From positions 1-34,761 of the IMG/VR virus record IMGVR_UViG_3300009481_000048: DNA of 34,761 nt. One strand, 5' to 3'. This stretch comes from a virus (taxonomy: Duplodnaviria; Caudoviricetes). The first letter of the stretch is position 1. The number at the start of each line of letters is the position of its first letter. The notes under the pieces are model-generated. The model ran no database searches, had not been told where the DNA came from, and worked only from the letters and a program-made list of their open reading frames with translations. This document shows positions 10,746 to 33,760 of this stretch, one piece after another. Made by a program: the position numbers and the translations under genes.

Positions 10746-11462
10746 CTAAAAATTAACATTTTTGTGGTATTTATCAACTCTCTCCAACCACCGTTCTTCG
10801 TACTCATTTAACATAGATTTGTCCATAATAAACTCTTGAAACAATAAATTTTTAGTACAAACAAAAATAGCACCCTGTTCAATCTCACCATATTGATGTT
10901 TGTGAGCTAAAGAGTAAGCTGCAATTTGATAATAATAATCTTCAATCCATTCTTCTCTTTTAGGTTTGTTAGATTGTTTAAAATCTCCAATAGTAGGCAT
11001 ACCGTTATAGTTACAAACTAAATCGGTAGACCCCGCCCAACGATCTTCATAAGCTAAATTTATTTCAGTTCCATAAACTTCAGATAAATTTTGTAAATTA
11101 TTTATAATTGTATGAGCCATCATTCTAGGAAGAGAACCATCTTCACCTAAGTTTAAATAACCTACACCATTCATATACTGTTCTAGTACAAAGTGCATTT
11201 CAGTTCCTCTAGTAGCCGCTTGAGTCGTGATCCGTGCAGCTTCTTCATGGCCCACTCGATTACGCCAGTTTTCTAAAATTCTTTTTTTCTCAGAGGATTG
11301 TGTAGCGGATAATATAGTAGTGACACTAGGTACTTTTTTATCTTCAACATTATAGGTTCGAGGGCCGTCATTATCGTTTCGAGTATAATTTTTATATTGG
11401 TAAGGGTACGTTTTTTTAAATCCAGATACAGTAAAGCTAGTATTATTTCTTGTTAGCTTCAT
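10746..11462 (-). CDS. PD-(D/E)XK exonuclease (phage lambda-exo/MGME1-like)
   Basis: VPSVTTIL, RGTEMH, E, AGSTD, IGDFKQS, QIAAY. Confidence 0.88.
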   Translation of the reverse strand: MKLTRNNTSFTVSGFKKTYPYQYKNYTRNDNDGPRTYNVEDKKVPSVTTILSATQSSEKKRILENWRNRVGHEEAARITTQAATRGTEMHFVLEQYMNGVGYLNLGEDGSLPRMMAHTIINNLQNLSEVYGTEINLAYEDRWAGSTDLVCNYNGMPTIGDFKQSNKPKREEWIEDYYYQIAAYSLAHKHQYGEIEQGAIFVCTKNLLFQEFIMDKSMLNEYEERWLERVDKYHKNVNF

Positions 11463-12201
11463 CTTTCACCTTTTGATTGTATTTAATACTTTCTTTGATT
11501 AGCGTTAAATTGACACCGTAATACAAGGCTGACTGTTTTATGGCTTTTATATCTTTAGGAAAACAATGCCCACCAAAACCACGTTCTTTAGTAACTAGTG
11601 TATGACTAGTGCCTATTCTTTTATCCAAGGCTATACCTTTTCTTACATGCTCGTAGTCAATACCAGATGCTTTACACAAATCGTATATTTGATTAAAGAA
11701 AGATACTTTGGTAGCTAGATAAGCGTTTCTAAAATATTTAATTAATATTAGTTCTTTTGGATCAGCTTCTATAATGTGAGGACAACTAGGAAATATTTGT
11801 TTAAATATTTTAGTCCAAAAATCAGTTTCAGCTCCACCTATCATAATTAATTCTTGTTGCCTTAAATCTTCTAGTGCTGTATTGGCTCTTAAAAATTCTG
11901 GAGAATAAGACATACGTTTTTCGTAAAAACTACTTAAATGATCCCAACCTTCTAAAGATATTGTGCTTTTTATTAAAATGGGAACGTTCGGACAATCTCG
12001 CATAACTTCAGAAACGTGTCTCATGTTACAGCTGCCGTTGTTACCTTCTGGGGTAGGCACACATACAATAACCCCATCCGTATCATCACTGACCTTTCTG
12101 TCGTAATGTTTAGGATCTATTATCTCTACTTCATGATAATTTTGCAAAATGGCTGCGTAGGCTTTACCAACAAAGCCGTAACCCGCTATAGATATTTTCA
12201 T
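11443..12201 (-). CDS. ugd: UDP-glucose/GDP-mannose 6-dehydrogenase family protein lacking the C-terminal domain
   Basis: GYGFVG, VCVPTP, IKST, SPEFL, KY..NAYLATKVSFFN, D.RIG, GFGGHCFPKD; 252 aa. Confidence 0.88.
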   Translation of the reverse strand: MKISIAGYGFVGKAYAAILQNYHEVEIIDPKHYDRKVSDDTDGVIVCVPTPEGNNGSCNMRHVSEVMRDCPNVPILIKSTISLEGWDHLSSFYEKRMSYSPEFLRANTALEDLRQQELIMIGGAETDFWTKIFKQIFPSCPHIIEADPKELILIKYFRNAYLATKVSFFNQIYDLCKASGIDYEHVRKGIALDKRIGTSHTLVTKERGFGGHCFPKDIKAIKQSALYYGVNLTLIKESIKYNQKVKDEANKK

Positions 12202-23325: not shown

Positions 23326-23367
23326 ACTTGTTAGTACAAGTTTACCTCTATTCTTCAGTGCTATCAA
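23326..23367 (-). promoter_or_regulatory. Sigma70-like promoter of the ejection-protein genes with an inverted repeat at the start site
   Basis: TTGATA-17 bp-TAAACT (23367-23339); ACTTGT-4 nt-ACAAGT (23326-23341). Confidence 0.55.
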
Positions 23368-24160
23368 CACTAGTAGGCTTCATTTCGTCCCATAAACGGC
23401 CTGTATACTGAAATTCGCCTACATGAGTTATATAATCCATAATATAACAATAACACTTACCACCTGTGTTACGCCATAACCTACAAAAAGCAAAGTCTTC
23501 ACCAAGAAAACGTTTGTTTTCTTGATCATAATAAGTGTCAAAAAAGTTATACAGATAAGGTTTTTTCTGTAGTTTGCCATCAATCAGGCTCTCTTGGTGT
23601 ATCTCCATATCTGGATAAGATTCAATCAAAGTATCAAACACTTCTCGTTTAATGAGCATACACCCCGTAGGTGCATGAGTGACTTCAATCACTCCGTCTC
23701 CTTCTATCTGAATTGCTTCATTATCTTCTAATCGCAAGGGGTAAGTATTACAATTGACATGAGCTTCGTGGGCCGTGGTCACATCACCATGTAATATTTT
23801 TTGAATGAGTCGGTCGAACTTAATATCTTTTAAAGGGTAGGGTACAGAAATGACATCCTTGTCAGCCTCAAGCATACTCCATATACTGTCTGAGGAAAAC
23901 GCTATATCTGAATCAATAAAAAGCATATGCGACATTTCGCTTTTTAAAAAAGAGGCAGTACATAAGTTTCTGCCTTGTGTGACTAGTGATGATTTTATCA
24001 TTTCAAAAACGACTTTAACACCTTTTTTCATACATTCTTTTTGAAACTCTAATAAACTTTGGGTGTAATGAATAGATACATCCGAGTGCACGGGTGTAGC
24101 TACATAGATACCCAGTTCTCTTTCTTGATTAAGCCACAATGGTTTACTTGGATCTGGCAT
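23348..24160 (-). CDS. GT-A fold glycosyltransferase-like protein
   Basis: VATP, SLVTQGRN, LFIDSDI (DxD), TGCMLIKR, GEDFAFC, HVG. Confidence 0.8.
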   Translation of the reverse strand: MPDPSKPLWLNQERELGIYVATPVHSDVSIHYTQSLLEFQKECMKKGVKVVFEMIKSSLVTQGRNLCTASFLKSEMSHMLFIDSDIAFSSDSIWSMLEADKDVISVPYPLKDIKFDRLIQKILHGDVTTAHEAHVNCNTYPLRLEDNEAIQIEGDGVIEVTHAPTGCMLIKREVFDTLIESYPDMEIHQESLIDGKLQKKPYLYNFFDTYYDQENKRFLGEDFAFCRLWRNTGGKCYCYIMDYITHVGEFQYTGRLWDEMKPTSVDSTEE

Positions 24161-25079
24161 GTAGGGCTCCTTCTAAAAATCTAGTCCACTCAATAGCTTT
24201 CTTATCCCAATTATAATAACGTTTGGTGTAGTCTTGTTGTACCAAAAGATGCTCATAGATAGCATCCTCATGTAAATGTCGCATACCAGCTTTAATCGCA
24301 TAAGCAAAGTTTTCAGCTAGTTTTTTATAATTATCGGTATAATTAACATAGATAGGAAATTCAGCACAAGTCTCATACAAAGCCCCGTAGTTGGTGGTGA
24401 CACAGTATAATCCAGCCGCCATAGCTTCGAGAGCCGAGATACATGAGGTCTCCTCCCAGATACTAGGGTAAGCAAACATGTGATAATCTTTCATCTTATT
24501 TAAAATAAAATCGTTAGACTCATGCCCGATATAGTTAACATTAGGTAATGCTCTTGCTTGATCGAATAGTTCTTCCCAGTCGGCATTGTTATCTTTAGCA
24601 AATTTTTCACCATACACTTCACAGTTGCTGTATACATCTAATACTATATTCTCATCTTGCAAGTGTTGCATAGCTAGTAGCAATACGTTCAAACCACGCC
24701 ACGGTGTTGGTTGAAAGACTAATCGTAAGGTGTCCCCTTGTTCATACGGTTTTCTTTCTGGGAAATGTGTAACCCCATTTTTAATCACATGACACCTTTC
24801 GGTCGGTATGTCATACATCATACGAAACTTCTCGTAGTTCCAATGCGAGTTAAACACATACCAATCGTATTTATAATGATTAGACTTGTTTTGAAAAAAA
24901 GGTCGAATATTAGGTTGGTCGTAACTGTTCTTTTGCCACAAGATGTTGATCTTGTTTTCATCAATAGGGACTTTGTTAGGTATAGAAGTGCAGATTTGAA
25001 AGTGACTAAGTAAGTCTGAGTCAACTCGTGCGGTTAAAAAATCGTGTTGTAATTCTGTGCCACCTTTAGGCTCACTCAT
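24144..25079 (-). CDS. GT-B fold glycosyltransferase (GT4-like)
   Basis: Likely start MSEPKGGTE (25079); VFNS, IKNG, PWRGL, YPSIWEETSCISALEAMAAG (E-x7-E). Confidence 0.88.
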   Translation of the reverse strand: MSEPKGGTELQHDFLTARVDSDLLSHFQICTSIPNKVPIDENKINILWQKNSYDQPNIRPFFQNKSNHYKYDWYVFNSHWNYEKFRMMYDIPTERCHVIKNGVTHFPERKPYEQGDTLRLVFQPTPWRGLNVLLLAMQHLQDENIVLDVYSNCEVYGEKFAKDNNADWEELFDQARALPNVNYIGHESNDFILNKMKDYHMFAYPSIWEETSCISALEAMAAGLYCVTTNYGALYETCAEFPIYVNYTDNYKKLAENFAYAIKAGMRHLHEDAIYEHLLVQQDYTKRYYNWDKKAIEWTRFLEGALHARSK

Positions 25080-25263
25080 TCGTCTCCCCAAAGAGATCAA
25101 GTTTAGGAACAATAATGGTTACATCACGTTGGATATCTTCTTCTTTGGTGTCAGTGCCTGCATCAGCTACATCAGCTTGAGCTTCTTCCTCAGTAGCATA
25201 CTCTAAGCCAGACTTTTTATTAGATATCTTAGTTTGTGATTCGCAATCAATAGTAATCGTCAT
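25072..25263 (-). CDS. Small acidic hypothetical protein
   Basis: 63 aa, own promoter upstream, overlaps GT start. Confidence 0.7.
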   Translation of the reverse strand: MTITIDCESQTKISNKKSGLEYATEEEAQADVADAGTDTKEEDIQRDVTIIVPKLDLFGETNE

Positions 25264-25614: not shown

Positions 25615-25775
25615 GAAATAAACCAGTTAAAAGTATCTTGTTCGTTTTTAAAATCTGTTTGAAATGAAAAATTAAGTTGATTTTTTAATGTGGTCAAAGC
25701 ATCCATAATCTGTCTTTGATTTGAAGCATCATATTCAGATTTAGGTTCTGGTATATTAACAGTAATTTTAGCCAT
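25611..25775 (-). CDS. Small tail-module protein (54 aa); not in ORF track
   Basis: MAKITVNIPEPKSEYDASNQRQIMDALTTLKNQLNFSFQTDFKNEQDTFNWFIS; TAATG and ATGA overlaps with neighbours. Confidence 0.75.
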   Translation of the reverse strand: MAKITVNIPEPKSEYDASNQRQIMDALTTLKNQLNFSFQTDFKNEQDTFNWFIS

Positions 25776-27943
25776 TATCTTTTTCCATCTGGTTGTACAT
25801 CTGCTCTAAATGAACCAAAACGCCAGTTCTCATCTTGAGCACTGTTTTGTATTTTAAGTGAAGCAAATCGACCTCTTGCTCTAGTGTCTATTTTTTTAGT
25901 TGATGAGGTTACGGTAAACGGCCCTAATGATGAACTTGATTCTGTTTCAGATGGAAAGTCTTTGAGTTGTATAGTGACTGTCGCATTACCACTTAACACC
26001 TTAAAGTCTGGTAAGAAACGCCTAATCTTGATAAAGTTTTCTCCTTGTCCACCTTCAGCGTCTAAAGTAAAATCACCTGATTCTATAAAAGCATTAATAC
26101 TTTGCACAAAGTTTCCATTTTGATCAGATTCGTTAACGCCTTTTTCATGTTCGTAAACAGTTGTCTTACCTAAATTTGTACTGACTCCTTGAATCGTAGG
26201 AAAAGTAGGTGCACTTGAAGTAGTAAATTCTGTAGCTATTGGGTTATCAAATAAATATTGGTCAATGTAAGCAGTTCTTGATAAAGAACTGGTTGTCCAT
26301 GCACCTTCACGATAATTTAATGTTACACATCTATCAATACCAGTAGAACCCGCTTTAGGATAAAACCAATTAATTTCTGTAAACAATGAATTGTAATTAC
26401 AATAGACAACTTCACCAGAATCATAATTAATACCTAAATCATCACTATCAACATTAGTAAATACAAAGTCTTCCACCGAACAAGGTAGTCGTTTAACCGT
26501 ACCATCAAAGACAAAAAAACCACCCGATTCACCCATCCAATATACCGCACCATCTACATAGACAAGTGCGTGTTGACCAATTAAACCACAGTTAGAGCCT
26601 ACCTGTTGTATATTAAAAGTAAAAGGTGGACCGACAAATTGCATTGTATAAGCAGAAGTATCGGTTAATATAAAAATATAATCTTTTGCTCGTAAAGCTC
26701 CCACTATTTTACTACCAGAGTCTAATCTAAAAGTACCCGCAGTATTAGTAGATACTGGAGCATAGTCTGTTCGATCTTCTTGATCACTGAAACGAATAAA
26801 CATTTTGTCTTGACTATCTGTGCTGCCTACTGTTGTTTCTGTGCCTAAATGTATTAAATGTCTATCTCGACCTGAGACTAATGACATAACACTTGCTGTA
26901 GGATTTGTAGTAGACACAGTGGCTCGAGTTTCTACACCACTAGTCGGATTCCATTCAAATGTTTTACCGTCGTGTACGGTAGCAATTAAAATAGAACCAA
27001 AATTATCTAAAGCCCAGTTTGCAGGGTCTATAGTTACGCTAGTAGTAGGAGCAGCATTGCCCCAAGCAACAAAGTTAGTCGCATCAGTGACGACCGCCTC
27101 GTCATCATGTGCTGCTCTGGTTGAACCTAAAGCCGCTCTAGTAATGCCTGTTAAATCATTACTGGAAATGCCTGTGTAAGTAATTAATTCTGAACCTACC
27201 AATATGTGTCCAGATGAACTAAAACCAGAAGTAGAAGTTAATGTTACTGCTGTACCCGAACCACCTGTACCTGCGGTGTTATCACCTAATGCACCATTAA
27301 GATCGTTTTTTGTAAGTGAAGCTGACTCACCACCCCACTGAGCAACACCCCAACCATAACCAGCTGTTGCTTGTGCAGGTCCAAATTTAACATATGGGTT
27401 TATATTACAACCTGTCGCACCAGTTACACCAGCACCAGATTCAACTTTACCCATTGTTACAGTAAAGGTATCAGATGTTCTAGTGACAACTTCAAAGGTA
27501 TTAGTCGTGAAGTCAGAAGCAACAAATCCTGTGCCACTTCCTGGTATAGTCATATTACTAAATGTAAATAAATCACCTACTACTAACCCATGAGCCGCTT
27601 TGTTAACTGTTAAAGTAGCTGAATTGTTAGTGGTTGTGTAAGTACAAGAGGTAAGAGCTGTGTCAAGAGGTGTAATGTCAAAAAAAGCATTACCATAGTA
27701 TAAAGCAAGTATCTTGTTAGTAGCGACGGCTAAATATTTTTTACCATCTAGATCTGACCAATTGTGTAAATCTCTAGTAGCTCCAGCTAAAGTATTTGAT
27801 GTAAGCTGTTGCCAACCCCCTACTTTCTCTGGTTCGCCATAACGAAAACGTACAAAGTCGCCGTCAGTCCATGTGTATTCAGCAGATGATTGAGTCATCT
27901 GTTTATTAAAACCTGGTTTGAACGGTACTTTAACTAATGGCAT
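25775..27943 (-). CDS. Tail nozzle/stabilisation protein (P22 gp10-like beta-propeller) with inserted beta domains
   Basis: 722 aa; VRFR.G.PEK.GGW, IRFSDQED, NTAG.FRL..GS, GPPFTF, CGLIG, YWMG, EINWFYP, R.RGR; inserts AHGL..GD and ELITYTG..LTGITR. Confidence 0.75.
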   Translation of the reverse strand: MPLVKVPFKPGFNKQMTQSSAEYTWTDGDFVRFRYGEPEKVGGWQQLTSNTLAGATRDLHNWSDLDGKKYLAVATNKILALYYGNAFFDITPLDTALTSCTYTTTNNSATLTVNKAAHGLVVGDLFTFSNMTIPGSGTGFVASDFTTNTFEVVTRTSDTFTVTMGKVESGAGVTGATGCNINPYVKFGPAQATAGYGWGVAQWGGESASLTKNDLNGALGDNTAGTGGSGTAVTLTSTSGFSSSGHILVGSELITYTGISSNDLTGITRAALGSTRAAHDDEAVVTDATNFVAWGNAAPTTSVTIDPANWALDNFGSILIATVHDGKTFEWNPTSGVETRATVSTTNPTASVMSLVSGRDRHLIHLGTETTVGSTDSQDKMFIRFSDQEDRTDYAPVSTNTAGTFRLDSGSKIVGALRAKDYIFILTDTSAYTMQFVGPPFTFNIQQVGSNCGLIGQHALVYVDGAVYWMGESGGFFVFDGTVKRLPCSVEDFVFTNVDSDDLGINYDSGEVVYCNYNSLFTEINWFYPKAGSTGIDRCVTLNYREGAWTTSSLSRTAYIDQYLFDNPIATEFTTSSAPTFPTIQGVSTNLGKTTVYEHEKGVNESDQNGNFVQSINAFIESGDFTLDAEGGQGENFIKIRRFLPDFKVLSGNATVTIQLKDFPSETESSSSLGPFTVTSSTKKIDTRARGRFASLKIQNSAQDENWRFGSFRADVQPDGKR

Positions 27944-27999: not shown

Positions 28000-28569
28000 C
28001 TAGATAAGGGGCTTGCCATTCATCCATGCAACCACTGCATGGCGTTGTCCTTCATATACAGTCTCACAGCCATGTAAGCTATAAGATGGAAATATTATAA
28101 TATTACCTTTTTTTTGTGGAGGAAAAAACTTCTCTCCACTACCATTAATTAAATAAAATAAACCACCTTTAAAATCATCATTTAATACAGTCAGACATGT
28201 TAATTTTCTTACATATTCTTGGTTTTGAGAAAAAGCGTAATCCACATGAGAAGTGTATTTACCGTTACGTTTGTATATTAAATACTCAGCTTGGCTACAA
28301 AAAGTTATATCGTATTTCCAATTTTGAAAATTAGCATCTAATGCAGCAGCTATTAGATATGAGGCAACACCTGTGTAAGGAGGTAGGTCTATTTTATTAA
28401 CATCCCTTACCTTTTTGTCAACTATTTCTTTCTTTAAACTATCAGTTTTAGCTTTAGTAGTTTTTTGGTTTTTATGTTTATTTATATAAAAGTCACATAC
28501 ATCATGAGGTATACCTTGATCGTCTTGATAAACCCAACAAGGTACAATTAAACTTTCAACTCCTTTCAT
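28000..28569 (-). CDS. 2OG-Fe(II) oxygenase (prolyl hydroxylase/PKHD-like)
   Basis: HVD, RKLT, FKGG, FPSY.LH, G.RHAVVAW. Confidence 0.88.
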   Translation of the reverse strand: MKGVESLIVPCWVYQDDQGIPHDVCDFYINKHKNQKTTKAKTDSLKKEIVDKKVRDVNKIDLPPYTGVASYLIAAALDANFQNWKYDITFCSQAEYLIYKRNGKYTSHVDYAFSQNQEYVRKLTCLTVLNDDFKGGLFYLINGSGEKFFPPQKKGNIIIFPSYSLHGCETVYEGQRHAVVAWMNGKPLI

Positions 28570-29206
28570 TTTTACTCTCCCAATTAAAAAAGTGTGTTAC
28601 ACAATACCTACCATCTCCGAACTTTGCATTAGTATCCATTTTTACAGGATATACTTTGTGCCCTAAATAGCTAGGAAACATAACCATCCTATTTGATATA
28701 CATTTAATTTTTTTATTCGCTTCTGTAAGGCAAAAGTCACCACCTTTAAATTTTTTAGGTTCTTTATAAAGCCAGATAAGAAAAGTAAACTGCGTACTAT
28801 CTTTGTGAGATTTATACTCCTGCTCATGGTCATAATAACTGACCATAGTAGAATCAGTATTTGTATTTATATAATTATTGTGGTGAAGAGGCATCCCTTT
28901 CTCTACAATTTTTTTAAATTCCTCAGATTGTTGTTTGTATAGTGCTTGAACTATATGCGAAAATTTTGTGCCTTTGACTGTGTAGGTATCCCATAAATAA
29001 AAACGAAAAGCATTTGACTTAGCTTTACCGTCAGTTGACTTTGCTACAACAGTGTCTTCTGCTTTCTCGATAGTGGCTATTTCTCTACTAGAATAAAAAT
29101 CAAGCTCTTTCCATATAAGACTTAGTTCTTCTTCTGTATACCAATTATCTATTATAATATGAGGATACACAGGATCTTTAGATGTTTTTACTTTCCACTG
29201 TTTCAT
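28556..29206 (-). CDS. 2OG-Fe(II) oxygenase
   Basis: IIDNWY, HKD, FKGGDF, FPSY..HKV, GRYCVTHF. Confidence 0.88.
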   Translation of the reverse strand: MKQWKVKTSKDPVYPHIIIDNWYTEEELSLIWKELDFYSSREIATIEKAEDTVVAKSTDGKAKSNAFRFYLWDTYTVKGTKFSHIVQALYKQQSEEFKKIVEKGMPLHHNNYINTNTDSTMVSYYDHEQEYKSHKDSTQFTFLIWLYKEPKKFKGGDFCLTEANKKIKCISNRMVMFPSYLGHKVYPVKMDTNAKFGDGRYCVTHFFNWESKNERS

Positions 29207-29712
29207 AAGTAATTAATGTTAAAGTTTACTCTTCTAGGAACGTCAGTACAGTTAGTGCTAGCGTGTGGCTTACTAGAATCAAAAAACAATATTCGATTCG
29301 CTACGGATTCTACTTTTGTACCATCATCTAAAATAGTAAATCCATTATTTGTATTAAGATAAAATATAGCACCTTTGTGAGGTTCGCATTGATCGACATG
29401 TTTTGCGTATGTAGTTAATACTTCTGTTTTTAAAAATAAATTAGCTTTAGCCCTAATAAGTTGTTGTATGTTTATTTTTGAAAATAAAATGTCTGCAACT
29501 AAATCTAAAAACTGACTACATTCTTCTATACCATGATCATAAAAATTATGTATAAAATAAAAACCATCACTCTCTGTTTTCTCTGTAACTCCTACATGAC
29601 CAGCAAAATACCAAGGAAACCAAAGGTCTCCCTTATCATGTAAAAATATATCTTCAATTAATTTAAATTCTTCAAGGGGTAAGAAGTTATCAACTACTTT
29701 TGGCTTTCTCAT
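29203..29712 (-). CDS. 2OG-Fe(II) oxygenase
   Basis: VVDNFL, RAKANL, HVD, YLNTNNG.T, HASTNCTD..R..FNINY. Confidence 0.85.
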   Translation of the reverse strand: MRKPKVVDNFLPLEEFKLIEDIFLHDKGDLWFPWYFAGHVGVTEKTESDGFYFIHNFYDHGIEECSQFLDLVADILFSKINIQQLIRAKANLFLKTEVLTTYAKHVDQCEPHKGAIFYLNTNNGFTILDDGTKVESVANRILFFDSSKPHASTNCTDVPRRVNFNINYL

Positions 29713-30460
29713 TTACTCTCTCTATTTTTTTTAGTAAATTTATTAAAAACTTTATGTGGTCTATTTCATACCACTTAACTGAAATATCTAAACTGCTTGG
29801 ATCTGCATGATGATTGTTGTGGTATGGGTGCATTAAGATAAAGGGTAAGTGTATATTCCTTGAGTTGTCATTGGTTTTAAAGTTTTTGTACCCTATTTTA
29901 TGACCAAACACATTAACCCACGATGCTGCATGTAGTGAATATACAGCTGGTAAAGCAAATAAATATAAAGACATTTTAATATCTATAAACATTGTTGGTA
30001 ACACTACACCCCAATATATAAGGTAGTAGTATTTTTTAATAAATACATGTGCTTTGTCTTTAATTAATTTCTTAATTAAACCTGAACTTATCTTAGAGTT
30101 CTTTTGTGTTTCAATCCAAAACCAAGTACGCCAACCGTCTGTAGCTGGGTGTGGGTCTCCATCTACATCTGAATACTTGTGGTGTGTAGAGTGATTTGCA
30201 GCCCATACCATGGGAGGTCCTTGCAGACCAAATATAGCACAACTATTTAAAAACAACTGTGTAGGTCTAGTAATCGTGAAGGATCCATGAGATAGATACC
30301 TATGACAATAACCTTCTATACCTAGCTTTGCAAAAAATATAATACCTATCAAAGTAAACCATAAATAATTTATATCCCACATATAAAAAAGACCTACAGT
30401 AGTAAATATGTGTATAAGACCTTGAGATAGTAATAACTTATGATGATCCGCTATTTTCAT
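29690..30460 (-). CDS. Membrane di-iron fatty acid desaturase (delta-9/DesC-like)
   Basis: His boxes HRYLSH, HSTHH..SD..GDPH, N..GH, HNNHH; several TM segments. Confidence 0.9.
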   Translation of the reverse strand: MKIADHHKLLLSQGLIHIFTTVGLFYMWDINYLWFTLIGIIFFAKLGIEGYCHRYLSHGSFTITRPTQLFLNSCAIFGLQGPPMVWAANHSTHHKYSDVDGDPHPATDGWRTWFWIETQKNSKISSGLIKKLIKDKAHVFIKKYYYLIYWGVVLPTMFIDIKMSLYLFALPAVYSLHAASWVNVFGHKIGYKNFKTNDNSRNIHLPFILMHPYHNNHHADPSSLDISVKWYEIDHIKFLINLLKKIERVNEKAKSS

Positions 30461-30879
30461 CTATACCCTTTAATTAATCTTGTTGAGGGAATAATCTTAT
30501 CATTAACAATAACGGATGTATTGTTTTTTGTCGGTCCCATAAATAACAAGGTATAAGCAGGTTTATCAGCTTGTATCTCGTGAAATTTGTTGTGAGTTAA
30601 TAAGTTTACCCACTTATGATGTCTTGTTTCTTTTACCTTTGTATTAGGATCATAAGTCAATTCTTTATATTGACCCCAGAGTATAAAAGATATAAATGTA
30701 CCTTCGTGGTCGTGCATTACTTGTTGTACAGGTAGTACTTTACAAAATAAAATTGAAAAATAAGGACACCATATACCCCAGCGTCTAATGGTCATATGAC
30801 CAGTTCTAGTTGTAACGTGTGTAGGACCTATTCCTGAGTCGTTATAAATCCTTGAGAAGTACTTTATCATATCCACCAC
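30457..30879 (-). CDS. Cupin-fold protein
   Basis: HDH....SFILWGQY.E and FHEI....YTLLFMGP motifs. Confidence 0.7.
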   Translation of the reverse strand: MVDMIKYFSRIYNDSGIGPTHVTTRTGHMTIRRWGIWCPYFSILFCKVLPVQQVMHDHEGTFISFILWGQYKELTYDPNTKVKETRHHKWVNLLTHNKFHEIQADKPAYTLLFMGPTKNNTSVIVNDKIIPSTRLIKGYR

Positions 30880-31669
30880 TTCCGTCTGATTTAGGAACTT
30901 TTACATACTCACCAATATTAGCTTTATTAACACTTTGAGCTATGCGATTACCGTGATTGTCCGTTTTTGGTACAACAATTTCAGTGTCAGCTAAATTACT
31001 TATTTCATCAGCAAAAGGTGCAGTATATTCTATGTATAGACTAGTACCTTCCCCATACACTTGATACCTTTCTAAATGACTGTAAAGAGACACAGATACT
31101 AATTCTTTTGAACTATTAAATTTAAACTGAAAGGAATCATCCGCATGAGCTAATGATTTACTTTTAGATATTGGCATAACAATATCAGATTTTAATGATT
31201 TAGCCCACGCCCAAATATCATCATTTGACCCTTGTGCATAGATAGATTGAGTTTGTTGTAGCTCAAAATTTGAATTACACATATCAGTTATATACAAAAC
31301 AGTTATACCTGAACCTAAATTAACTACTGGTAAGGCTTGATCTTTCTTATAAAAAATTTCTATTGTTTTTGTTGCAGTATCTAAATCATAGATATACCTT
31401 AAAAAATCTTTATCAATCAACAGACTATTTTGCATCTTACTACTGTCTTTGTAATCTGGAGCACAACTACATTGATGAAAAGTTAATACATTACCGTCTG
31501 TATCCACACCCCATGTCTGAACTTCATAGGGAAAAGTTTCAGAAGTAAATACGTCTGTAACTTGTTTTTTAATTTTTGTAACTTCATCATCATCACTACC
31601 ACCAAAATACACACGGTTAGTGACTTTTTTATTATCAATATATGCTCTCATACAAACTAGATTACTCAT
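30842..31669 (-). CDS. Hypothetical protein; five beta-hairpin pattern suggests an antiparallel barrel
   Basis: 275 aa, TAATG-coupled to the adhesin; fold is inference only. Confidence 0.7.
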   Translation of the reverse strand: MSNLVCMRAYIDNKKVTNRVYFGGSDDDEVTKIKKQVTDVFTSETFPYEVQTWGVDTDGNVLTFHQCSCAPDYKDSSKMQNSLLIDKDFLRYIYDLDTATKTIEIFYKKDQALPVVNLGSGITVLYITDMCNSNFELQQTQSIYAQGSNDDIWAWAKSLKSDIVMPISKSKSLAHADDSFQFKFNSSKELVSVSLYSHLERYQVYGEGTSLYIEYTAPFADEISNLADTEIVVPKTDNHGNRIAQSVNKANIGEYVKVPKSDGSGGYDKVLLKDL

Positions 31670-32565
31670 TATGATACTGCTCCTTGAATGTTTCCACTGC
31701 CATCTTCATATGTTACCTGATTACCGTTTAAATTTATAGCCTTACCCGCTGCTCCACCTGCTGCTCCACTGTTACCTCCGCCAGAACCTGCTGCACCAAA
31801 GCCTCCACCAGCTCCACCATTACCTGCTGGGCTTTGTCCGCTTCCACCACCACCAGCTCCACTTATACTACCTGCTTGACCAGCTCCTGTTCCAGCACCA
31901 GCCGCACCACCTTGTTGGCCAGCTCCACCGCCACCGCCACCAGCAGCGAAATTTTGTGTGGTTGGAGTTTGGCCTTTACCACCACCTCCAGGCTGTGTGG
32001 CTGTAGCTCCTTTACCACCACCGCCGCCACCACCGCCACCACGGATAAAACCTCCGTTGTTTTGAATTGTAGTAGCAATGCCTAAGTTAATTGCATTTTG
32101 TGCAGCAGTACCAGCTGCACCTTGTGCGTTTTGCCCACCACCAGCTCCACCAGCTCCACCTCGACCAACAATTTGGCTATTGTTAATAATTTTAACGGTG
32201 TCACCTGAAGTCCACTGATTACCTGTATCAATAGCAGAAGCTCCTGTAGAACCAACGATTGCTTGTACAGTTAAGGTTACGTCCGAAATACCTGCCGAGT
32301 ATGAACCCCCTCTGTTTGCAAAAATGTTGTAACTTTGTGTGGTTGATGAAATAGTCAGTGCAATAGCTACACGATCTGAACCACCGTAAAATTGAGAGAA
32401 CGCAATAGCTCCACTACTTGGGATAGCACCAGCGTCTCCTGTAGCTCCAGAAGCCACGTTGTCACCACCTGCATAGTATTCACTCATACCAATAGGGTTA
32501 CTACCACCGTATTCAGTTTGTATCGCAGATAAAGCTAAGGATGAGCCCGCACTAGGTATTGCCAT
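31669..32565 (-). CDS. Glycine-rich tail-tip adhesin, T-even gp38-like
   Basis: N-terminal attachment-like domain, I.GRGGAGG, I.GGGGGGGG, C-terminal GGAAGKAI...GNIQG matching gp38 polyglycine-sandwich layout; follows an S74 tail fibre. Confidence 0.75.
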   Translation of the reverse strand: MAIPSAGSSLALSAIQTEYGGSNPIGMSEYYAGGDNVASGATGDAGAIPSSGAIAFSQFYGGSDRVAIALTISSTTQSYNIFANRGGSYSAGISDVTLTVQAIVGSTGASAIDTGNQWTSGDTVKIINNSQIVGRGGAGGAGGGQNAQGAAGTAAQNAINLGIATTIQNNGGFIRGGGGGGGGGKGATATQPGGGGKGQTPTTQNFAAGGGGGGAGQQGGAAGAGTGAGQAGSISGAGGGGSGQSPAGNGGAGGGFGAAGSGGGNSGAAGGAAGKAINLNGNQVTYEDGSGNIQGAVS

Positions 32566-33760
32566 TTTCTAATTTCTCCACTTTTGCTTCTAGTTCTTTA
32601 ATTGCTTCTATTAATACACCTACTAAGTTACCGTAAGCCACTGACATATATTCGCCTTCATCATGTACTACTTCTGGCATTACTTTTTGCATTTCTTGAG
32701 CAATCACACCAGTTCCTCTTCTACCGTCTCTATCAAAGGTAACACCACGCATATTAGTAACTTTATCTAAAGCACTATCAATAGTTTTAATCTCGGACTT
32801 TAATCTTTCATCTGAAAAAGCTGTAACATCATTGTTAAAGGTTGCAGCACCTGCTGCTGACATATCTAAGGTAAGTGCTGTTATAACTGCACCACCATCA
32901 TTACCTTTAAAAATAATGTCTTTATCACTGGTAGCTGATTGCATTACAAAATCAGTTGAACTATTAGTAAAACGACCAAACTCGGTGCCACCATCTTTTA
33001 AAATTATATCTGCTCCATCCGCATCTAAAACAATGTCTTGACCATCAAATAAAGATTGATCTCTTGTTTTATACTGCCAACCAACCGTGCTATCTCCTGA
33101 ATAAACTAATGTAAATGCTGCTCTTTCGTTTGCTATTACTAAATCAGAACCAGCTCCATTTATATTAGAACTGTTTCTACCAACTGTAAGATTGTTAGTA
33201 TCAAAGGTATTTTCTGAATCCATGAAAGTTACTTCATCACCTGTGGCAGGTGAGGCGGGTAGAGTAATCGTTCTAGCTGCACCAGAAGTATCAACTAATA
33301 TTTGTGCTCCAGCTTGTACTGTTTCGGCTGCTGCAATAACACGCCAATATCTAGTTTCTTGATCTTTAACAATATCAGTGCCGTTAGAATGACATATGTA
33401 ATGATGTCCTTCACATAATAAAAAACCTGTTTGACTGGTTACTTTAAAAGTAAGTGTGTAACCTGCATGATCAGTACCATCAATAATATTAAAAAACTTT
33501 TCAATACTTGCAGGCATGTTAACGGTTCGGTTAGCTGCTAAAGTACCTGTAAATTTAATACTCATGTTTCTTGCATTAGATATTGTGGCATTTGACATTG
33601 CTAAAGTAACATCAGAAGATGCAACATCTATTTCTTCATATCCCGCAACAGCTTGTTGTACAACATTAAGGTTATTATTACTTTTATCACCCCATGTTCC
33701 AGGGTTTTCTCCTGTTGCCATTAATTCTAATTTTAAATCACTTGAAAATGTTGATGCCAT
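32552..33760 (-). CDS. Tail fibre with C-terminal S74 intramolecular chaperone
   Basis: GEN.GTWG..N.N anchor, VDTS..ARTITLPASP..GD.V domain, FSDERLK, GVIAQE, VAYGNLVGVLIEAIKEL. Confidence 0.88.
   Translation of the reverse strand: MASTFSSDLKLELMATGENPGTWGDKSNNNLNVVQQAVAGYEEIDVASSDVTLAMSNATISNARNMSIKFTGTLAANRTVNMPASIEKFFNIIDGTDHAGYTLTFKVTSQTGFLLCEGHHYICHSNGTDIVKDQETRYWRVIAAAETVQAGAQILVDTSGAARTITLPASPATGDEVTFMDSENTFDTNNLTVGRNSSNINGAGSDLVIANERAAFTLVYSGDSTVGWQYKTRDQSLFDGQDIVLDADGADIILKDGGTEFGRFTNSSTDFVMQSATSDKDIIFKGNDGGAVITALTLDMSAAGAATFNNDVTAFSDERLKSEIKTIDSALDKVTNMRGVTFDRDGRRGTGVIAQEMQKVMPEVVHDEGEYMSVAYGNLVGVLIEAIKELEAKVEKLENGNT

Follow-up and report, generated by a model that had tools for sequence, protein, structure and literature searches.

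Gene organization of the adhesin module

The stretch of DNA analysed here, the IMG/VR virus record IMGVR_UViG_3300009481_000048 (34.8 kb, hereafter the window), is a phage record encoding DNA polymerase A, a primase, helicases and a tail module. We studied a gp38-like adhesin gene within this tail module and the six genes downstream of it, above all the one for a protein of 275 amino acids (aa), named U275. The tail stabilisation gene of the window (25775-27943) shows 55% identity to its counterpart in Pelagibacter phage HTVC023P; therefore, the backbone is of the HTVC023P type, which suggests a probable host. The initial annotation described seven overlapping open reading frames (ORFs), which the ORF listing bore out, all on the minus strand. 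The adhesin gene is joined to U275 by a TAATG junction with a 1 nt overlap, as had been read, and the following overlaps are 38, 4, 23, 4 and 14 nt in gene order. A 56-nt gap separates the seven-gene module from the next tail gene. The features are listed below, with AlphaFold2 (AF2) models graded by the predicted local distance difference test (pLDDT) and 2-oxoglutarate abbreviated as 2OG.

31669..32565, minus strand: gp38-like polyglycine adhesin, 298 aa, proposed substrate (AF2 pLDDT 84.5; Foldseek matches to PP01 and S16 gp38)
31948..32007, minus strand: main inter-glycine loop of the adhesin, a predicted beta-hairpin (translation and AF2 model)
31975..31977, minus strand: codon of K197, the tip lysine (centred Lys in 48/48 U275-linked loops)
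30842..31669, minus strand: U275, 275 aa, barrel resembling ABBA prenyltransferases, proposed transferase (AF2 pLDDT 90.3; fold matches; conserved R8, R19, H65, C67, E104)
30457..30879, minus strand: cupin, 140 aa, 3-His metal site, second core gene (PHROG match; in 36/38 complete cassettes)
29690..30460, minus strand: membrane desaturase, acyl-CoA desaturase (SCD1)-like at E 1e-13, optional (also PF00487)
29203..29712, minus strand: 2OG-Fe(II) oxygenase 1, optional (profile matches and motif)
28556..29206, minus strand: 2OG-Fe(II) oxygenase 2 (Oxy2), commonest accessory gene (in 21/38 complete cassettes)
28000..28569, minus strand: 2OG-Fe(II) oxygenase 3 (Oxy3), PKHD/PF13640 type, optional, end of the module (profile match)
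32552..33760, minus strand: tail fibre with a C-terminal S74 chaperone domain, outside the swapped module (profile matches)

The adhesin is likely carried by the tail fibre at 32552..33760. The cupin, the membrane desaturase and the three 2OG-Fe(II) oxygenases named in the initial annotation were confirmed by profile matches and metal-binding motifs. The desaturase matched PF00487 (E 1.8e-12) and has the three His boxes of membrane di-iron desaturases, and the oxygenases matched PF13640 at E 1.3e-11, 2.2e-9 and 1.1e-3 (the last short of the Pfam cut-off), all three with the HxD...H facial triad and the distal Arg. The cupin was recognised solely through PHROG 4786 (E 2.7e-8) and the invariant H56, H58 and H100, with no useful match in the PDB; an ATG three codons further in may be its true start.

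The adhesin and its lysine hairpin

Foldseek of the predicted adhesin model retrieved gp38 of PP01 (E 5.2e-8) and S16 (E 9.6e-7), in agreement with the gp38-like assignment. The model has the beta-helix and polyglycine II sandwich of this fold (TM 0.69 by target), and no sequence-level match to the gp38 proteins in the PDB was found. Glycine-rich motifs alternate with variable loops in the adhesin alignment, as in the gp38 type, while the N-terminus (residues 1-60), where gp38-type adhesins have the helical domain for attachment to the fibre tip, was modelled as two short helices at pLDDT 43-63. Translation of 31948-32007 gave the same 20-mer that had been quoted for the main loop, and the strands 187-191 and 202-206 of the AF2 model flank K197. 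A lone Lys had been placed at the hairpin tip; its position holds, but it is not lone, as K185 lies at the hairpin base just beyond the quoted stretch. The loops were also described as nearly free of aromatic residues, and this holds: in 46 U275-linked adhesins the median aromatic content per non-Gly residue is 0.033, compared with 0.095 for the 26 adhesins that have no cassette.

Two forms of duplication were seen among the relatives. The Lys hairpin and its glycine run are tandemly duplicated within one adhesin (L299:835-1905), and aromatic-rich, cassette-less gp38-like adhesins occur in tandem arrays of two or three (L176, L244-L246, L259).

The tip lysine tracks U275

Seven viral scans supplied the loci compared, together with one metagenome and one genome scan, and several of these gave the best 80 matches each; a scan with a distant adhesin alignment (poly-Gly patterns) covered 1/64 parts. 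Clustering at 85% identity gave 99 adhesin clusters: 50 are followed by U275, 20 by the genes X115 and Y157 (a sister clade, described below) and 26 by neither, and 3 had too little DNA. The 50 U275-linked clusters yielded 48 distinct loops, since one was truncated before the loop and one loop was a duplicate; three misparsed loops were retrieved separately.

A centred Lys was present in all 48 loops and was replaced by Arg in none. Its relative position was 0.42-0.65 where parsed, and the flanking residues vary freely, K-G being the commonest context (32/48). The codon is AAA in 43 loops and AAG in 5. Elsewhere in the polyglycine domains of these adhesins, Lys makes up just 14 of 2060 non-Gly residues. 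None of the 26 cassette-less gp38-like clusters has a centred Lys, with off-centre Lys in two. In the reverse search from U275, the gene upstream was the adhesin in every case among the matches listed. In the comparison of loops and enzymes across relatives that the initial annotation had proposed, Lys tracks U275.

One lineage has lost both the tip Lys and the cassette: it comprises L042 and L048, whose adhesins branch within the U275-linked ones and show 70% identity to them. The L042 adhesin runs directly into other genes, and U275 was absent from its 38 kb record (65% complete), with a control record positive. In L048 only 137 nt are available downstream of the adhesin, and U275 does not start there. 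A cupin fragment lies 3.7 kb upstream of this Lys-less adhesin (L048:2-241), so a second, cassette-linked adhesin may be present in this phage. A scan aimed at further Lys-less relatives gave no new lineage.

Predicted fold and conservation of U275

The AF2 model of U275 consists of five beta-hairpins forming a 10-stranded antiparallel barrel, with two long helices only. A second structural aligner run against 48,161 chains placed ABBA prenyltransferases at ranks 1-17 (Z 9.0-7.0, root-mean-square deviation about 4, 173-199 residues aligned), the best other fold reaching Z 6.9. A further alignment, covering residues 1-199, reached Z 9.5 at best, with colinear strands and 3-13% identity to ABBA enzymes. 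In Foldseek, the top 21 among the matches listed were also ABBA prenyltransferases (best E 8e-3, TM 0.34-0.41). ABBA enzymes are built from five alpha-alpha-beta-beta repeats, from which an outer ring of helices is expected, and in the model the crossovers are partly loops. The match to the ABBA fold is consistent yet middling, and a shared predicted fold does not establish function.

Among 21 homologues below 75% identity, C67, G54, F41, E44, P166, N225 and D237 are invariant; R8, K101, E104, Y94 and Y107 are kept in 20/21 and H65 in 18/21. Candidate residues for a diphosphate site lie on the strands (R8 20/21, R/K19 18/21, R/K91 18/21), and strand alternation suggests that R8 and R19 would be paired inside the barrel. 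U275 had no match in Pfam, PHROGs, NCBIfam, PDB sequences, the ESM Atlas or GenBank phages, and a profile search returned 26 U275 representatives, none with a name. The tail fibre assembly (Tfa) profiles of PHROGs did not match U275, whereas they do match the genes behind the adhesins L216 and L235.

Composition and movement of the module

Thirty-eight cassettes have a visible end. Fifteen of them consist of U275, cupin and Oxy2, 14 of U275 and cupin, and 3 of the full six genes; the remaining 6 hold other sets, one being U275 alone. The conserved core is therefore adhesin-U275-cupin, with desaturase and oxygenases optional: the cupin is kept in 36/38, while 15/38 have the Lys and no 2OG oxygenase. 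The initial annotation had seen a six-enzyme tailoring cassette, which is present here; it is not a fixed pathway but the long form of a two- to three-gene core. An adhesin followed by U275 only is seen in L196/L197, which would fit an enzyme needing only a host donor.

The module is mobile. Fibre and tail genes on either side of it in L037 match those of the window at 95-96% identity, yet the adhesin and cassette of L037 differ, whereas L006 is only 29% identical in the tail gene and 75-92% identical in the cassette. Adhesin and U275 were found to move jointly across at least four phage backbones, and pairwise identity of U275 tracks that of the adhesin (rho 0.44, n 41), not that of the flanking tail gene (rho 0.03, n 23). 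The GC content of the cassette (0.32 vs 0.35) is uninformative on recent transfer. Adhesin and cupin identities are uncorrelated (rho 0.00); this may fit enzymes acting on the attached group and not on the loop sequence, and would fit passengers equally. Gene layout, fold matches, the link between Lys and U275 and the joint movement between backbones are all direct observations.

The oxygenases had been thought to hydroxylate Pro and Lys of the loops in general, and this found no support. A tie between Oxy2 and loop Pro was tested and rejected (9/16 vs 12/22, p 1.0). Oxy3 does associate with Pro loops (6/16 vs 0/22, p 0.003), from two or three lineages only. Desaturases at 34-44% identity recur in separate Lys-loop cassettes.

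Larger arrangements also exist. Three U275 paralogues, two cupins, an SDR reductase and four oxygenases stand behind long Pro-rich Lys loops in L053-L055:8993-16240, and two U275 paralogues with two desaturases stand behind another such loop in L309:2461-6003. One 110 kb contig (L283 and L303) holds two different adhesin-U275-cupin modules, each preceding a tail stabilisation gene, and may be a chimeric assembly. In the window itself, two genes of the tail region resemble glycosyltransferases and, with a UDP-glucose dehydrogenase (23348-25112 and 11443-12201), possibly serve glycosylation of the virion or the host surface.

Related cassettes in other phages

The sister adhesin clade is followed by the Tfa-like X115, the beta-rich Y157, several oxygenases and, in some cases, a desaturase or Coq4-like gene. 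Y157 belongs to no family, has one invariant Gly and no catalytic-looking residues, and gave no useful match in the PDB. In this clade the Lys follows Y157: L211 is without both, and L233 and L330 have the Lys in the first loop instead. We considered whether X115, Y157 and Z180 represent a split U275 and rejected this, as they have no profile similarity to it.

As a second cassette type behind Lys-loop adhesins (L199-L234 and L318-L344, e.g., L229:773-5328), this arrangement comprises X115, Y157, the oxygenase-like Z180 (HxD/H...H), up to five further 2OG oxygenases and at times a desaturase. A Coq4-family gene (PF05019, E 1.2e-8) lies directly within one Lys-loop adhesin cassette (L318:5450-6127). 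The adhesin of L216/L264 (L216:6494-7469) bears a Lys-Gly turn on a later loop, and the genes behind it encode a Tfa-like protein, a protein with a weak GNAT match (E 0.036) and a 2OG oxygenase. In HTVC023P, four Gly/Pro-rich fibre genes precede a 2OG oxygenase cluster (gp59-gp67; L068:2235-10915), and these fibres are candidates for prolyl hydroxylation.

The U275 model had fold matches among viral proteins, including those of Atu_ph07 (E 9e-6) and of the cyanophages S-RIM44, ACG-2014e, S-CAM3 and S-CAM1 (E 3e-3 to 3e-2). The candidates in cultured phages were located by ORF length only, and their sequence similarity to U275 was undetectable; in a ranking with 98 control ORFs, the one from Atu_ph07 came 4th. 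Those of ACG-2014e, S-CAM1 and S-RIM44 are homologous to one another. The cyanomyophage operons with a candidate U275-fold protein (KJ019156:40740-48036, L362:7039-14443, L397:3957-11163) consist of a tail fibre, three 2OG oxygenases, a Tfa-like gene, a 117-aa gene and the candidate as the last gene. No gp38-like adhesin was found in the four cultured-phage records with candidates. The predicted fold thus appears to be tied to tail-fibre maturation in unrelated phages, a link that does not distinguish enzyme from chaperone.

A proposed mechanism and its alternatives

The data describe a module that is real, conserved and mobile, for which a single target residue can be predicted and a candidate transferase named. 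Putative action of the cassette on the loop Lys, the central idea, gains independent support: Lys tracks U275, and the predicted fold of U275 is prenyltransferase-like. Our leading explanation, tentative and at a little under an even chance, is that U275 prenylates K197 and that the other enzymes tailor the lipid. U275 would bind a host prenyl diphosphate and alkylate the amine of K197 in late infection, and the cupin with the optional oxygenases and desaturase would then oxidise the attached chain. The decorated tip may replace aromatic loop residues, as their scarcity suggests, and bind a hydrophobic site or the host membrane. Catalysis, donor, product, step order and a role in host range are what we infer. 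The layout had been likened to a cluster for peptides that are made on the ribosome and modified after translation (RiPPs). The substrate gene is clustered and co-inherited with tailoring enzymes, as in RiPPs; the comparison is otherwise not supported, since there is no leader and no cleavage and the candidate substrate is a folded virion protein. The module has no protease or transporter.

Several points weigh against prenylation by U275. The Lys-U275 covariation, although strong by count, is thin by events because L042/L048 is the only independent joint loss; a quick tree built from 137 columns of the non-loop segments (79 rows) places the U275-linked adhesins together in a single group. Of the 20 sister-clade clusters, 16 have the Lys in the absence of U275, 3 do not have it and 1 was unparsed, so Lys does not depend on U275 everywhere, and no recognisable transferase occurs in the cassettes of this clade. 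Clusters of 2OG genes also lie downstream of tail genes without such an adhesin (HTVC023P, L258), and behind cassette-less adhesins a Tfa-like chaperone often occupies the slot of U275. Foldseek of U275 gave nothing at E <= 0.001, Z scores under 8 are common by the aligner's own warning, profiles of prenyltransferase families did not match U275 in sequence, and the ABBA diphosphate site could not be mapped onto it. To our knowledge, the invariant C67 with H65 is no feature of ABBA enzymes, and we know of no ABBA enzyme that N-prenylates Lys. Among the papers listed in the literature search, N-prenylation is described for Arg only.

It is unlikely, though worth serious attention, that U275 has no catalytic role and serves as an assembly chaperone or as a partner of the tip, docking on the Lys hairpin or becoming cross-linked to it; the Lys would then be chemically plain and bind this partner or a receptor, with oxygenases and desaturase as passengers of a variable tail region. 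The shared slot with Tfa-like genes, the absence of catalytic-looking residues in Y157, the coming and going of accessory genes and the 2OG clusters that HTVC023P-type tail regions have anyway, according to the accessible part of PMC9599517, agree with this. On the other hand, U275 matches enzyme barrels and not Tfa, invariant polar residues sit on its barrel strands, Lys is never swapped for Arg, the cupin is retained in nearly all complete cassettes (36/38) and the desaturase recurs in separate Lys cassettes.

U275 may instead be an acyltransferase that, through a Cys67 thioester, transfers a fatty acyl group onto K197 for tailoring by the desaturase and oxygenases. We regard this as rather improbable: there is no acyltransferase among the fold matches of U275, and membrane desaturase folds also act on isoprenoids. 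Conservation of C67 (21/21) and H65 (18/21) in diverse homologues, the closeness of the desaturase to acyl-CoA desaturases and the weak GNAT match (E 0.036) behind another Lys-bearing adhesin speak in its favour, as do the selidamides, which combine Lys fatty acylation with hydroxylases (PMC8784127, seen in part). Taken together, a covalent lipid on K197, prenyl or acyl, is fairly probable. The least probable reading is that the Lys is only oxidised to hydroxylysine, perhaps glycosylated by phage glycosyltransferases, or that the product of the enzymes is a free small molecule or an altered host lipid, leaving the adhesin without a lipid. Collagen lysyl hydroxylation likewise takes place in a K-G context, the commonest one here (32/48), the sister clade has oxygenases only and two glycosyltransferase-like genes lie 3-5 kb from the module. 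However, 15/38 complete cassettes without a 2OG oxygenase keep the Lys, one with U275 alone, and HTVC023P and HTVC027P have the glycosyltransferases yet no module. A resemblance to lipoyl-domain motifs recognised by host ligases was set aside, as Gly predominates in the flanks and position -3 shows no conserved acidic residue.

Comparison with known systems

The adhesin resembles T-even gp38 (S16 6F45, PP01 9V85) in its predicted beta-helix and polyglycine sandwich, its variable loops and its gene position after the fibre. It differs in its podovirus-like or other marine backbones, its aromatic-poor loops, its one long hairpin with a fixed Lys and the enzyme genes next to it, whereas T-even gp38 binds through plain variable loops (PMC12032242, available in part). 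ABBA or PT-barrel enzymes (NphB, EpzP, TleC, MpnD; the peptide-acting PagF, LimF, KgpF, DciF) share the ten antiparallel strands, and some members, e.g., AutF, N-prenylate peptide side chains (PMC9609003, in part). U275 has fewer helices, 75 extra C-terminal residues, an invariant Cys and a proposed acceptor Lys in a folded virion protein.

Selidamide RiPPs (KspN/PhaN GNAT acyltransferases, PhaI hydroxylase) likewise place a lipid on a Lys/Orn side chain beside a clustered hydroxylase, as described in the available portion of PMC8784127; here there is no leader or cleavage, no GNAT in the window and no released peptide product. MepM-dependent methylation of mycobacteriophage Gp34 is a tail-protein modification needed for adsorption (PMC13445384, partial text). 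It involves a host enzyme and a methyl group, whereas the present module is phage-encoded, swappable and multi-enzyme. HTVC023P-type pelagiphages carry 2OG-Fe(II) auxiliary metabolic gene clusters of the same enzyme families in the same genome region, which the consulted part of PMC9599517 connects with ferrochelatase and iron rather than with an adhesin. Neither U275 nor such an adhesin was found in the GenBank phage set. A literature search that covered few subscription papers turned up neither an adhesin-modifying cassette encoded by a phage nor a phage prenyltransferase of this kind, and these genes may be listed in the gene tables of PMC9599517.

Implications

The claim boils down to one residue and one enzyme. 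If it is true, U275 would be the first viral PT-barrel enzyme found in the searches of this analysis, and possibly a Lys-specific protein prenyltransferase usable as a tool. The oxygenase and desaturase clusters that lie unexplained in the tail regions of very abundant marine phages would then gain a function. Phage host range would also gain a chemical layer, in which specificity comes from an enzyme-built ligand and not from protein sequence alone. More broadly, and still tentatively, many aquatic phages may recognise their hosts not with plain protein loops but via a small molecule built on an adhesin tip lysine, with interchangeable transferases, and with variable oxygenases and desaturases that diversify the ligand. 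Many 2OG and desaturase "auxiliary metabolic genes" could then be tail-tailoring enzymes.

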